DNA of 62,451 nucleotides, counting the filler, from Spirochaetales bacterium (GTDB lineage: Bacteria > Spirochaetota > Spirochaetia > Treponematales > UBA12059): assembly GCA_016928955.1 (NCBI GenBank). It is 3 parts of 3 records of this genome, joined end to end, with 100 filler letters (N's around TTAATTAATTAA, not from the genome) between each part and the next. Parts side by side here need not be neighbours in the genome. Positions count along the whole stretch, not along the records: positions 1 to 24,216 come from JAFGJV010000025.1; 2 more parts are not named here. One strand, 5' to 3'. This document shows, in pieces, positions 9,001 through 12,000 of the stretch. Each line of letters begins with the position of its first letter. Position 1 is the stretch's first letter. The position numbers are program-made.

Positions 9001-12000
9001 GGAGTTGGCGTCAATGCCGGACTCGGCCAGGATGTCCGACAGGTCCTCGGCGTCCGGAACCTCGTTGGACAGGTCGTTCTTGGCCATGTACAGGCCCATG
9101 GCGTTGACGGCGCCGGGGACATGGCCGGCCTTGTAGTCGTCCATCTTGCGGACGTCCAGGACGACCAGGCGCTCGTTGCCAAGGTTGGCCTCGAGCCAGT
9201 CGGCTGAAACGATGGCGTCAACGTCGCGAGCAAAGGCGGGCGCGACGAGGGCGGCCAGTACCAGGAGAAGGGCTAGCTTCTTCATGATGGGGTGCTCCTT
9301 CAAAGGCAAGGCGGTTTCTCGGCATGGCCGGTCCCGCCAAAAAAGGTCCCCGCCCGGCCAGGGGGCGGGGGCTATGAACTAGGGAACAAGCTCCAGGTTT
9401 TTCAATGAGAGCCCCTCGGGCAGGTCGCTGGTCTGCAGGTAATGGGCGCCTTCCACGTGGCAGGCGTTGCAGTCGCGGGTGCGGTCTGTGCGCTTGGCCA
9501 GGTTGTGGGGCACGGCGTCCCAGTAGTTCGGCAGGCTGTCGTAGTTGGACATGGTCACCCCGGCGTGCTTGAACGTGTCGCGCACGGTGGGGATCAACCT
9601 GAGCGTGGTCAGCTCCTTGGGATTGCGTGGACTCTTGCCCAGTACCAGGCCAGGCTTGGCCGTGGCGCCGGAGCCCTCATGGCAGTTTGAGCACTGGCGG
9701 TATTCAGACGTGACATGGCAGGCGGAACACGACACGTGCTCTAGATGCGTTGCGTGGGTCTCCTGCGTGGAATCCTTGCCCATGGTGGCTATGTCGTGGC
9801 AGTCGGTGCATGACGGCCTGTTGGCCACGTCCTTGCGTCCGCTTGCTGCTCCGGACGTGCCGTGGAACTGGTCTCCGCTGTGACAGTCCGTGCAAGTCAT
9901 GCCCTTGCGGTAGTGCACGTCGGGCACTCCCGTGTAGTCGCCCGTGAATTCCGGCCACACGCGGCCTCCGTGGCACAGGGCGCAGGTTTTAGACTCGTCG
10001 GCTTTGACAAAGCGGTGCCCGTCCAGGAGGCCCGAGTTGATTCCGGATACCACGGGGCTCTGCACGTGGCAGTCGCCGCAGGACGCGTGGCATGAGCGGC
10101 AGGATTGCTCGAACACCTTCTGGTCAAAGAGCTTCTTTTCAGCGGCGTTGAAACGCGGCGCAACGCCGTTTTTCATGCCGGCCGCCGTGTAGTGCAGGGC
10201 CAGGGTATAGGTTTTGGAAATGGCCTCATGGCATTGTCCGCAGCTGGTTTCCGGCTGGTCCGAAGGGCGCTTGATCATGCCCTTGTGCGCAGCCGCCTTG
10301 TCCGCCGCGTTCTGATTGCCCTGGTGGCAACTTATGCAATCGAGGTAGAAATGGGGGTCTTCCGCCAGCGCGTCAGGGCTGACGACAAAGCCCATGTAAT
10401 AATCCGCCCGAACCGGGGGAGGAGCTCCCGCTCACCCCTCGCCTTCGGCCGACGCACCCGAGGGCGGCGTGACGAGCTTCTGCATCGTGGCCGGCGTGCT
10501 GTGGCAGTCAACGCAGCTACCGCCCGTTGCGTGGGCGGCTAGGGCGGCGGCGCCAAAGAACGCGACCATGAGCATGGCCCGCTTGCTTGCGGCCATATTC
10601 ATAGGAACCTCCTTGCCGGGATGGATAAGGCCAACGGCCCTCGCGGATCCAGTAAAGAACCCGCTACTCAGCTAATTTCAAAACTCGTCCGACTTTTGAA
10701 AGAGCCTCGTATCAGACTATAACCAATGTTGGGCACGGTGTAAATAGATAAAAATAAATATATATATGATTAACGACATCAAGAATGCCCGTCTCGATTG
10801 ACAAAAACGGTTTGTGCCCCTAGTCTTGGCTGGTTTACGTCCTCAGGCCTGAGGTACGAATTCCCTTCGGGAGTAGCCCGTGAACAAACTGCTGGATAAG
10901 CTGTCCTCGATAAAGCTGGCCATCGGACTGATCGTGTATCTGGCCGTGACAGGTATTTTGGCGACCCTGGTGCCGCAGGGTCTTGCCTTTGAAGAATACC
11001 AGGCCCTGTACCCCCGCCTGCTTGCCGACCTGGTATTCCAGACCGGGTTCTCGCATTTTTTCAATTCAATCCTGTTCATACTTCCGGCCTTGCTGTTTTT
11101 TGCCAATCTGTCGGTGTGCACCGTCAAGCGTTTTGTCCGGGAAATCCGCAGGAAGGGTCCCAAGCGCTTTGGTCCGGACATACTCCACCTCGGGCTGATG
11201 CTTCTGGTGCTGGGCTCAATCTGGTCGTATTCCGGACATCAGCAGGGCGCGGTTACCTTGAGCCCGGGCGAGGGCGTGGAGCTGCCCGACGGATCGACCC
11301 TGGTGCTCAGGGACTTCCGCTTTGAGCAGTACGACGATGGGCGCCCTAAGGATTGGATATCCACGGTGGACCTGAGCAAAAACGGCCAAATCATCAAGGA
11401 AGGCTATCAGCTCAAGGTCAACGCGCCGTTGCGGCACGCAGGCTTGACCCTGTACCAGGCATCCTACTCCCAGCGCTCGTCGCTCATCCTCAGGGACGCT
11501 GAAGGCCACGAATTCCGACTAGGGCAGGGCGAGAGCCTGGAACTCGGCGGCCTATCCGTGTTTTTCATGGCGCCCGAGGGCACGGACCCGGCGGGAGACG
11601 GCGTACTTGCGGCAGACCAGCAGCCGGATAACGCGCGGGCGGTGGTACAGCTGTCCGACGCCGACGGACAACGAGTGGAAAGGCTGGCGCCGGGCTCTGT
11701 GCTCGGCGACGTCACCGTGATCGGCTTCAGGAACGAGCTGGCGACGGGCATAGAGGCTGTGGACGACCCGGGCTATCCCCTGGTGCTCGTGGCCCTGATT
11801 CTCATAGCCTTTGGCACCGCGCTCACCTTCATACAGAAACTCAAGGAGCTTGCATGACCCTGTCCCAGATACTGGCCACCGCGGCCTTCTCCCTCCTTGG
11901 CCTTTCGGCCCTGGTCCTTATCGTGCGCCTGTTCTCCCGCTCGGGCAAACCCGAATGGCTGTCGGCGGCTGCCCAGGCCCTCGCGGCGGTGCTGTTGGCC

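Follow-up and report, generated by a model that had tools for sequence, protein, structure and literature searches.

An exported eleven-haem cytochrome c with a probable selenocysteine, encoded beside the selenocysteine machinery of an uncultured spirochaete

Two apparently broken genes in a Spirochaetales genome (GCA_016928955.1) are almost certainly one gene for an exported 11-haem protein with selenocysteine (Sec) at the position of a stop codon. The gene was analysed within a stretch of 62,451 nucleotides, filler included (the window). According to structure prediction, the closest solved fold is that of octahaem tetrathionate reductase (OTR) and not that of the Sec cytochrome MccSep. The protein most likely reduces sulfur compounds, with the product of the adjacent gene, a likely sulfur carrier of the rhodanese type, as its partner.

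Results and Discussion

A single reading frame with one internal TGA

A preceding genome-wide survey's note had joined two gene calls into one cytochrome of 407 residues that has 11 CxxCH motifs and a single TGA in frame, at codon 57, and translation gave the same result. A single frame of 407 codons occupies positions 9379–10602 on the minus strand and yields 407 residues plus the stop. Its one internal stop is the TGA at codon 57 (10434–10432), flanked by GEGEG and AGAPPP. The CxxCH motifs are located at residues 30, 89, 121, 168, 175, 207, 237, 265, 292, 304 and 378; one precedes the TGA, and ten follow it within a 338-aa ORF (9379–10395). No other ORF of the genome contains at least three CxxCH motifs. 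The gene and its elements are as follows:

9379–10602, minus strand: gene of the exported 11-haem cytochrome c, 407 aa, with probable Sec at codon 57 (frame, motifs, model and fold)
10531–10602, minus strand: signal peptide, codons 1–24 (basic start, hydrophobic core, AxA; cleavage site placed by eye)
10432–10434, minus strand: TGA very probably read as selenocysteine (U57) in GEGEG-U-AGAPPP (frame and conservation in relatives)
10403–10420, minus strand: SECIS-type hairpin, +12 to +29 after the TGA, with a GUU apical loop at +19 and one bulged C
10716–10744, minus strand: sigma-70-like promoter 5' of the cytochrome gene, TTTACA-17-TATAGT (10/12; consensus match only)
9348–9370, minus strand: putative terminator-like hairpin of 8 GC pairs with a T-run, between the cytochrome and rhodanese genes

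In three sludge metatranscriptome runs from one study and in one sediment run, read depth was even over genes and spacers. None of the metatranscriptome pieces listed spans the UGA, and neither transcription nor co-transcription is visible in those contigs.

Conservation of the TGA and co-occurrence with SelA

That the TGA at codon 57 is read as Sec is close to certain from the comparison of sequences. TGA was present at the aligned codon in 61 of 61 loci, and TAA or TAG in none. Exactly one in-frame TGA was found in all 37 matching genomes of the host's order and in 45 of 46 matches from a second phylum, Desulfobacterota; the codon is constant in the two phyla down to about 32% identity. Within the family UBA12059, the counts of the survey's note were obtained again: 21 of the 41 other genomes match, each with one TGA and one of them with an added TAA, SelA occurs in all 21, and the cytochrome occurs in none of the 15 SelA-free genomes. 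Its figures of 577 stretches and 80 of 80 loci, and the occurrence in phyla beyond Spirochaetota and Desulfobacterota, were not reproduced; one scan of genome_contigs, made with the single protein, returned 21 loci. Across the host's order, SelA was detected in 35 of 37 genomes with the cytochrome as compared to 26 of 164 without it. The co-occurrence is uninformative in Desulfobacterota, where SelA is found in 371 of 401 genomes. All four of selA, selB, selC and selD lie inside the window.

It is extremely improbable that translation truly ends at the TGA or inserts Trp or Cys there, which would make the locus two genes, a pseudogene or a case of plain read-through. Such a reading could draw on the databases, which store the family mostly as the post-UGA fragment (named ‘hypothetical’ or ‘cytochrome c3 family’) and hold two close entries with Trp at the Sec position, on the relative with the additional TAA, and on the SelA search, which was negative for 2 of the 37 genomes with a match in the host's order and for 2 of 44 in Desulfobacterota. 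However, the downstream ORF, which starts with MGFVV, has no signal peptide of its own, TGA serves as an ordinary stop in this genome, and neither the absence of TAA and TAG from the 61 loci nor the covariation of the SECIS element described below fits a stop. Moreover, of the two SelA-less spirochaete drafts, one carries a TGA-bearing selD and the other selB and selD. The Trp entries are probably gene calls made under another genetic code. A genome-wide script for Sec candidates overlooked both known Sec codons and is thus uninformative on the selenoproteome; its top candidate turned out to be two separate genes.

A SECIS-type hairpin of constant position

By the consensus rule, the SECIS stem-loop lies directly 3' of the UGA and has a G early in its apical loop. 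A hairpin after an 11-nt spacer, which in this genome requires a bulged register, had been described before, and both features were seen here. It is backed by the pattern in the family and by codon freezing, whereas its own folding energy is ordinary when compared to synonymous shuffles (p 0.18). Each of the 33 distinct windows downstream of the TGA forms a hairpin that has a G in the first two loop bases and a loop start at +18 to +24, and 25 of the 33 fold better than synonymous shuffles at p ≤ 0.05. The stem of a second clade differs, with 35 of 35 cells paired across 5 of its 6 distinct sequences and with two double changes. Among 15 spirochaete genes, invariant residues were encoded by one codon in 5 of 6 cases at codons +4 to +9, as compared to 2 of 82 elsewhere. 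An Rfam search gave no match to a SECIS family. A constant SECIS position combined with a diverging sequence and compensating changes strongly supports Sec recoding at the level of sequence.

Gene neighbourhood and electron supply

As the survey's note had stated, tRNA-Sec, selD, selA, selB, resB and ccsA surround the cytochrome gene, and the rhodanese gene begins 93 nt past its stop, with an ATG at 9285:

8413–9285, minus strand: exported tandem rhodanese with a signal-peptide-like start and a single Cys in a C-terminal CDSG loop
10880–11857, plus strand: ResB-like protein of cytochrome c maturation, its gene divergent from that of the cytochrome (15 of 42 loci, counting the window, have a homologue)
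11854–12654, plus strand: CcsA/CcsB cytochrome c synthase of system II (13 of 42 loci)
7242–8306, plus strand: selD, with its own in-frame TGA at 7293–7295 (CSAAG-U-AAK)
7013–7103, minus strand: tRNA-Sec with a UCA anticodon
5613–7109, minus strand: selA, longest ORF
3763–5616, minus strand: selB (winged helix of SelB present; 216.8 bits, with the TIGR00475 cut-off at 242.25)

Since the longest ORF of selA overlaps tRNA-Sec, its true start is probably later. The rhodanese is likely a sulfur carrier, and in 41 of 42 loci a rhodanese gene adjoins that of the cytochrome. The distribution of CcsA, present in 34 of 42 family genomes, does not follow that of the cytochrome. In Desulfobacterota, the cytochrome gene mostly lies beside those of other cytochromes and not beside sel genes. 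A nine-haem membrane cytochrome b/c is encoded in 6 of 18 mapped loci.

In this genome, which is 99.5% complete, searches for NrfD, cytochrome b561, NapC/NirT, ALA dehydratase and molybdopterin oxidoreductases were negative. With neither ALA dehydratase nor the usual quinol-to-cytochrome links detected, the organism must import haem and has no obvious electron donor. The FMN-binding genes inspected by sequence are those of Nqr and Rnf and not of a dedicated donor. Searches for GrdA and NrfD_2 were uninformative because they had no positive-control match.

Homologues and the state of the Sec column

The cytochrome family was carried by 37 of 201 genomes of the host's order and by 44 of 401 sampled Desulfobacterota genomes. 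From 57 full-length database homologues, P0125 and P0200 were left out as unrelated or repetitive, leaving 55. The Sec loop contains Cys in 14 of them (9 exactly in the column) and is of the Trp type in 8 (6 exactly), with neither in 33. The earlier statement that distant homologues carry Cys therefore holds only in part. In 43 of 51 Sec forms, the present protein included, there is no Cys outside the haem motifs, and Sec is therefore the only free chalcogen in most of them.

Arg214 is found in 51 of 51 Sec forms, 10 of 14 Cys forms and 6 of 33 other forms. Over independent pairs, it changed in the same direction as Sec/Cys 5.5 times and never in the opposite one (median p 0.03), in a test of 8 pairs only, with p ranging from 0.008 to 0.25 and the column chosen post hoc. 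Glu218, Arg335, Arg150, Tyr301, His283 and Met235 were not coupled to Sec/Cys in the independent-pair test. The tree was built with FastTree and midpoint-rooted, and we draw from it neither a direction of change nor a donor.

The Sec column also bears on whether the protein might be an electron carrier or store, in which Sec57 would be a fixed axial ligand lowering the potential of one haem and tuned by Cys, His, Met or Tyr in homologues. Tyr, His or Met fill the column in 9 of the 22 homologues without Sec, Cys or Trp that have a residue there, as compared to 6% in the remaining loop (binomial p 2e-6, kinship ignored), and two haems lack a His partner. However, Tyr is one mutation away from Cys, the column is alignment-sensitive in a loop of low complexity, and an anionic substrate is indicated both by the neighbouring rhodanese (41 of 42) and by the coupling of Arg214. 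We regard a carrier of this kind as distinctly unlikely, and an enzyme rather than an electron carrier as probable.

Predicted fold and comparison with OTR

The structural model had a pLDDT of 90.4, with values of 63 and 56 for the blocks of the Sec loop. Among 48,161 chains, VIA placed OTR (1SP3) first with a Z of 9.7, which is modestly above the 7–8 typical for unmatched models (261 aligned residues, rmsd 4.3; next Z 5.1). A profile alignment matched the OTR haem motifs in order (E 5.5e-9); in the profile search, the PDB cytochrome 28PB and two others ranked above OTR. Foldseek gave no match at E ≤ 0.001, OTR was not among its 72 ranked chains, and a VIA rerun on these chains reached a top Z of 5.0. 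A single-sequence PDB search found no match. The VIA score and the collinear motifs support an OTR-like haem core, which Foldseek missed. The model suggests an OTR core, formed by haems 3–9 and 11, to which haems 1, 2 and 10 are added.

Eight haem motifs and several distal His are collinear with those of OTR (Shewanella SO4144, PDB 1SP3, TIGR04315), which has 8 haems as compared to 11 here. In OTR, haem II is catalytic (PMC4484225). Haem 4 (C168–H172) is predicted to align with it, and Arg214 is predicted to sit in the region matching the catalytic pocket. In known Sec-OTRs, Sec stands just ahead of haem II (deep-Sep supplement; also in a 2026 review), ten residues before the catalytic haem, whereas the loop that bears Sec57 is N-terminal and connects haems 1 and 2. 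In addition, the segment before haem II with Lys56, a ligand of OTR (PMC3769277), and NNF-C/U is replaced here by a predicted helix without Cys or Sec; a Lys ligand may still be present elsewhere. With TIGR04315 (cut-off 375 bits), hmmscan gave no match at E 0.01, while the model did match another protein; its search across five genomes gave no match and had no positive-control match.

TsdA, a thiosulfate dehydrogenase/tetrathionate reductase with a His/Cys haem, illustrates how a chalcogen residue can both ligate a c-haem and carry sulfur adducts. TsdA differs in being dihaem and in having Cys instead of Sec, and no sequence or fold match to it was found. The nearest fold, Sec as the only free chalcogen (43 of 51 Sec forms without Cys outside the haem motifs) and the promiscuity of OTR-type enzymes (PMC13510729) would suit a TsdA- or OTR-like action on thiosulfate or tetrathionate. 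The rhodanese neighbours would fit equally well an oxidative reaction, in which sulfide or persulfide would be turned into polysulfide as happens in sulfur disproportionation. In either case, Sec would alternately bind and leave a haem iron. We nevertheless consider these possibilities unlikely: the Lys56/Cys segment of OTR is exchanged for a Cys-free helix, TIGR04315 is unmatched, and this genome offers no electron acceptor for oxidative running beyond Nqr and Rnf.

Comparison with MccSep and other known systems

The best functional analogue is MccSep/ExtKL (GSU2937–2936, NF040886, PDB 9WT8–9WTC; PMC13510729). Both are periplasmic multihaem cytochromes c that contain a single Sec and have a SECIS hairpin as well as Cys-type relatives. 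In both cases annotation had divided the gene, and the Geobacter ext cluster likewise has a rhodanese-like gene (ExtH model). MccSep has five haems, one of them His/Cys-ligated, and carries Sec on a C-terminal Ig-like domain (PMC13510729), whereas the present cytochrome binds eleven haems, has no free Cys and carries its Sec near the N-terminus, after haem 1 and before haem 2. The conserved Cys that is the distal ligand of the catalytic haem in MccSep has no counterpart in 43 of 51 Sec forms, the present one included. Remote homology, which the survey's note had left aside, was now checked and found no support in the sequences, with a profile E of 0.15 across 23 residues. NF040886 (cut-off 250 bits) gave no match at E 0.01, nor did it match anything in five carrier genomes, this one among them. 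MccSep was not among the fold matches listed by Foldseek and VIA, whose libraries may not include it.

The family is missing from the selenoprotein catalogues checked, as had been claimed. Its distinction from MccSep/ExtKL also stands, although the OTR-like fold and the already catalogued Sec-OTRs had been overlooked. Since Sec-OTRs are known, the family ranks third and not second among the types of periplasmic multihaem cytochrome that contain Sec. The GSU2204-family CXXCH selenoprotein (NF041027) is another haem-motif selenoprotein in a published list; it is described as an outer-membrane beta-barrel type, and no NCBIfam match was found at E 0.01. ExtM, ExtN and ExtO (NF040943, NF040967, NF040968) gave weak matches through a shared haem module (E about 2e-8; residues 81–298 or 86–164), with about 33 bits as compared to cut-offs of 200, 200 and 800, and the review table does not list them among the selenoproteins.

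These weak matches of the cytochrome to ExtM/N/O, and of the rhodanese to ExtH, all far under cut-off, belong to models of a selenite/tellurite operon. The same selenoprotein might accordingly act mainly on selenium, reducing periplasmic selenite or polyselenide for SelD supply or detoxification, while the rhodanese would carry the selenium. MccSep also reduces selenite (PMC13510729), the spirochaete gene lies in a cassette with selD, selA, selB and tRNA-Sec, and the rhodanese neighbours fit this role as well as they fit sulfur reduction. Against it, an 11-haem selenoprotein with imported haem would be a high cost for trace selenium, Desulfobacterota copies mostly lie beside cytochromes and not sel genes, co-transfer of the required machinery accounts for the sel genes nearby, and Cys forms exist. 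A main role in selenium metabolism thus appears rather unlikely.

Proposed function and mechanism

The best reading of the main role is a periplasmic sulfane-sulfur or polysulfide reductase, to which we assign roughly even chances. The 33 of 55 homologues with neither Sec, Cys nor Trp in the loop and the want of an obvious electron donor in this genome count against it. A reductase of a sulfur or selenium compound is suggested by the neighbours and by analogy; MccSep is a polysulfide reductase, so a Sec multihaem cytochrome can do this (PMC13510729). A fusion search returned 4 longer proteins, none of which lists a rhodanese domain, so that no fusion was found that would explain why JGI calls some homologues ‘sulfurtransferase’.

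The sequence shows that SelB and tRNA-Sec can decode the UGA by way of the hairpin, and that the adjoining ResB/CcsA can serve to attach the haems. With nine conserved non-motif His for eleven haems, two iron sites appear to be open. In the proposed mechanism, Sec57, on its mobile N-terminal loop, may act at an open haem-4 pocket lined by Arg214 and Glu218, where it would attack the S–S bond of polysulfide, or of a persulfide on the Cys of the neighbouring rhodanese. The haem chain would then re-reduce the selenosulfide, and sulfide would leave. Electrons would come from quinol, in several Desulfobacterota via a nine-haem, six-helix cytochrome b/c of the same operon; for this spirochaete, a NapH-type membrane ferredoxin is the candidate link.

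Whether Sec57 ligates a haem is a separate question. Sec can be a natural axial ligand of haem, as in a Sec-ligated cytochrome P450 (PMC11703216), which differs in its b-type haem, proximal ligand and oxygenase fold from a c-type multihaem protein. For His/Sec ligation of a c-type haem in an OTR-like fold, no precedent was found in the literature searched. We consider it less likely than not that Sec57 is a direct haem-c ligand. It is likewise possible, without being the favoured outcome, that Sec57 is both distal ligand (His/Sec) and catalytic nucleophile in an OTR-like fold, and that the spirochaete cassette dumps electrons on periplasmic polysulfide. Under such an arrangement, the cassette would comprise Sec machinery, haem attachment, enzyme and sulfur carrier, and would work with scavenged haem in spirochaetes that have no other exported c-type cytochrome.

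Significance

A widespread selenoprotein family appears to have been hidden in databases, almost only as a cytoplasmic-looking fragment. MccSep (2026) and the Sec-OTRs, which are unstudied, are two ways in which Sec is linked to a haem wire; the family would add a third, and it is a candidate for sulfur reduction where MccSep was not found (five genomes searched). If Sec ligates iron, a new natural haem-c site would be added. For uncultured spirochaetes, usually taken as fermenters, the finding suggests a respiratory or detoxifying role.

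Gene anatomy and neighbours of the cytochrome

The genome-wide survey's note had proposed that two split gene calls are one frame with an in-frame TGA, and translation of the window confirmed that this is real. The cytochrome occupies 9379–10602 on the minus strand, a single frame of 407 codons plus stop, in which the sole internal stop is the TGA at codon 57 (10434–10432), the proposed Sec57. Its start is signal-peptide-like, and one CxxCH haem motif precedes the TGA and ten follow it. In the 99.5% complete host genome, it was the only ORF with at least three CxxCH motifs; the remaining listed CxxCH-bearing ORFs, judged by eye, appeared cytoplasmic. 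The finding lies entirely inside contig C37 (the window joins C37, C40 and C48, with N gaps at 24217–24316 and 51721–51820). The neighbours are as follows:

ATG at 9285, minus strand: rhodanese, 93 nt downstream of the cytochrome
7242–8306, plus strand: selD, itself containing an in-frame TGA (7293)
5613–7109: selA, a neighbour together with tRNA-Sec and selB
resB and ccsA: neighbours divergent from the cytochrome

SelD is a selenoprotein too (U-x-x-K); its plain ORF call begins at 7305, past its TGA, and a TGA is also present in selD of genomes G135, G035 and G047. The cytochrome leader contains a 33-bp element (10676–10708) with an internal inverted repeat, TTCAAAA...TTTTGAA. With 22 more matches genome-wide and occurrences in contigs of other organisms, it resembles a dispersed repeat or an IS/MITE end. 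A sulfonate/taurine-type ABC transporter (16496–18895) lies 4 kb past ccsA, and the type I restriction-modification genes, IrrE-like peptidase and DUF4411 at 26413–31076 have no relation to the cytochrome.

Conservation of the TGA and of the SECIS hairpin

A genome_contigs scan with the single protein as query returned 21 loci, and the aligned codon was TGA in all of them. One locus (L005:59–1333, also L028) held an extra TAA 16 codons ahead of the Sec codon; this copy is a broken gene or an assembly error. In the host's order, 37 of 201 genomes (own included) had a match, each with one TGA. SelA was found in 35 of these 37 genomes, compared with 26 of the 164 non-matching ones. The two matching genomes without a SelA match were 92% complete, and G135 has the TGA-bearing selD and G151 has selB and selD. 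Of 401 genomes from the phylum to which the Desulfobacteraceae locus L019 belongs, 44 matched. One TGA was present in 45 of 46 matches, the 46th spanning residues 159–396 only, and SelA was near-universal (371/401 genomes; 42/44 cytochrome-matching ones). The first stop upstream of the cytochrome body was TGA in all 61 loci read, ten of which duplicate earlier genomes or the window itself, and its distance to haem 2 was always 28–32 residues, down to 32% identity. SelA scores were grouped (cytochrome carriers about 1e-72 to 1e-105, one other genus 1e-108, another family 1e-120 to 1e-130), which hints that the Sec machinery may have been acquired separately in different groups.

All 33 distinct windows from +10 to +36 folded into a hairpin whose loop begins between +18 and +24 and has a G among its first two bases. 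Stability exceeded that of synonymous shuffles (p ≤ 0.05) in 25 of the 33, and 31 ranked in the top tenth of windows from their own gene; the host genome's own window alone was not significant (p 0.18). Across 15 spirochaete genes, a single codon was used at 5/6 invariant residues of codons +4 to +9 vs 2/82 elsewhere. The near-clade six-pair register was paired in 103 of 114 cells, the host genome requiring a bulge. The far-clade stem differs, with both sides changed at two positions and 35 of 35 cells paired (five of six distinct sequences; the codon-shifted one was excluded). Given both the conserved TGA and this hairpin, we regard a protein lacking Sec at codon 57 as extremely improbable.

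Residue 57 in homologues and novelty of the family

The 1.84-billion-protein library yielded 491 cytochrome matches with 57 full-length homologues, of which two, unrelated or repetitive, were excluded. The earlier statement that distant full-length homologues carry Cys held for 14 of the 55 classified, with Cys in the loop, and failed for eight Trp-type homologues and 33 with neither. Some Trp-type homologues are probably TGA translated as Trp by gene callers. Column 57 of the 33 comprised gap (11), Tyr (6), Ala (5), Arg (3), His (2), Leu (2), Met (1) and three others. In a FastTree tree computed with the loop left out, Sec forms split into two clades, and Cys and other forms lay between these. 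In the close homologues P0041, P0061, P0089 and P0087 (48–55% identity), Ala or Tyr replaces Sec and the GGRV motif is altered; these are possibly non-catalytic paralogues nested inside the Sec clade. A set of 5.8 billion proteins gave 796 matches; of the best 120, nearly all begin past the UGA, and they either lack a name or are labelled 'hypothetical' or 'cytochrome c3 family'.

NCBIfam 20.0 and Pfam gave no family-level match, with weak ExtM/N/O and generic c7/c3 domains only. ExtKL, GSU2204 and octahaem tetrathionate reductase (OTR) are the three selenoprotein families related to haem in Table 1 of a 2026 review (PMC13188914). The accessible part of the first deep-Sep supplement has seven cytochrome entries, all OTR or ExtKL type by sequence, and none of six motifs of the present family (PMC12013277). 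The literature covered also included accessible text of PMC13510729 (MccSep), PMC13326102 (BSepDB), PMC8840924, PMC9250108, PMC11492766 and PMC5029168, and the literature searches listed no description of the family. The claimed absence from published lists is borne out within review Table 1 and the accessible deep-Sep entries. The cytochrome is a selenoprotein family missing from the catalogues checked; the Deng 2026 candidates or other supplements could contain it.

Operon partners and electron route

The rhodanese adjoined the cytochrome in 41 of 42 flanked loci (37 by clustering, four more by Pfam; exception L073), comprising the window, the 21 scan loci and 20 others. Its C-terminal Cys was retained in 33/40 aligned copies. 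In six of 18 mapped loci, the operon also codes for a second rhodanese, for a nine-haem protein in which six or seven helices are predicted and one part is cytochrome b561-like, and in most cases for another 6–8-haem cytochrome. The nine-haem membrane protein, which resembles CbcL, is a natural candidate donor on the quinol side. The second cytochrome (610–760 aa; L062:4564–7191, L063:5405–7231, L067, L072, L077) gave no family match, and in L062 it is divided between 100-aa and 756-aa ORFs.

The order ccsA-resB, cytochrome, rhodanese, tRNA-Sec, selA, selB was repeated in spirochaetes G025, G037 and G013 (genes named by inspection); in many close relatives, the sel genes are located away from the cytochrome. 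By eye, CoA-disulfide reductase-like, cysteine desulfurase-like and YedE-type membrane genes flank the G013 cassette (L096:1573–10345). At L062:11453–13285, directly upstream of the cytochrome operon, lie one gene resembling CoA-disulfide reductase and one of the C-GCAxxG-C-C family; both begin mid-domain, a possible sign of Sec truncation. Arsenic-resistance-type transport genes (SBF/Acr3-like, ArsP permease) occur near the cytochrome in 4–6 loci (L005:2819–3901, L010:5613–6794, L065:10463–13684).

No match for NrfD, cytochrome b561, NapC/NirT, ALA dehydratase or molybdopterin oxidoreductases turned up in the host genome. It contains a MenA-like gene, CcdA/DsbD, operons resembling Nqr and Rnf, and a membrane protein of the NapH type (Fer4_5). 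From this gene content, haem is probably scavenged, and formate dehydrogenase is not the explanation for the sel genes.

Predicted fold, haem ligands and proposed mechanism

AlphaFold2 with a 139-row alignment (pLDDT 90.4, pTM 0.86; Sec loop low at 63 and 56) predicted an OTR-like core plus a mobile Sec loop. Foldseek with this model found no match at E 0.001. VIA against 48,161 chains placed OTR (1SP3) on top (Z 9.7, 261 aligned, rmsd 4.3; next Z 5.1), and a PDB-sequence profile search ranked OTR (E 5.5e-9) after three other multihaem proteins. The OTR haem order is kept, with I matching haem 3, II haem 4, III–VII haems 5–9 and VIII, weakly, haem 11; haems 1, 2 and 10 are additional. Glu218 and Gly221 align opposite OTR Asp150 and Lys153, which line the OTR pocket. 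As far as the accessible texts go, haem II is the catalytic haem of OTR (PMC4484225) and is tied to Lys56 (PMC3769277). Catalogued Sec-OTRs in the accessible deep-Sep entries carry Sec in NNF-U immediately ahead of haem II (PMC12013277), whereas the present family has neither Cys nor Sec there. The family is built on an OTR-like core, yet is not a TIGR04315 member, and TsdA/OTR-type or oxidative chemistry appears improbable.

Besides the His of the haem motifs, nine others are conserved (84, 106, 137, 196, 230, 247, 283, 286, 366), two fewer than the eleven haems. An electron carrier with residue 57 as tuning ligand is a still less probable reading. Direct bonding of Sec57 to haem iron is conceivable, if rather unlikely; the sole natural Sec-haem bond found in the literature searched, as far as the accessible text goes, is in a P450 (PMC11703216).

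Since all Cys residues lie within haem motifs in 43 of 51 Sec forms, the Cys ligand of MccSep (ExtKL, a pentahaem selenoprotein) is unmatched in the family; in the PDB-sequence profile search, MccSep reached E 0.15 over 23 residues only. The column best tracking Sec/Cys, picked after inspection, was Arg214 (51/51 Sec, 10/14 Cys and 6/33 other forms). Over eight independent pairs, it changed in the same direction 5.5 times and never in the opposite one (median p 0.03, range 0.008–0.25); six further columns failed this test. The anion site of MccSep includes an Arg, according to the accessible text (PMC13510729). By analogy, the cytochrome most likely works like MccSep, without being a MccSep member.

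Reduction of selenium is a minority reading that we hold unlikely. We give about an even chance to the reading that Sec57 would act at the open pocket of haem 4, where it would cleave the S-S bond in polysulfide or rhodanese persulfide and would be re-reduced via the haem chain.
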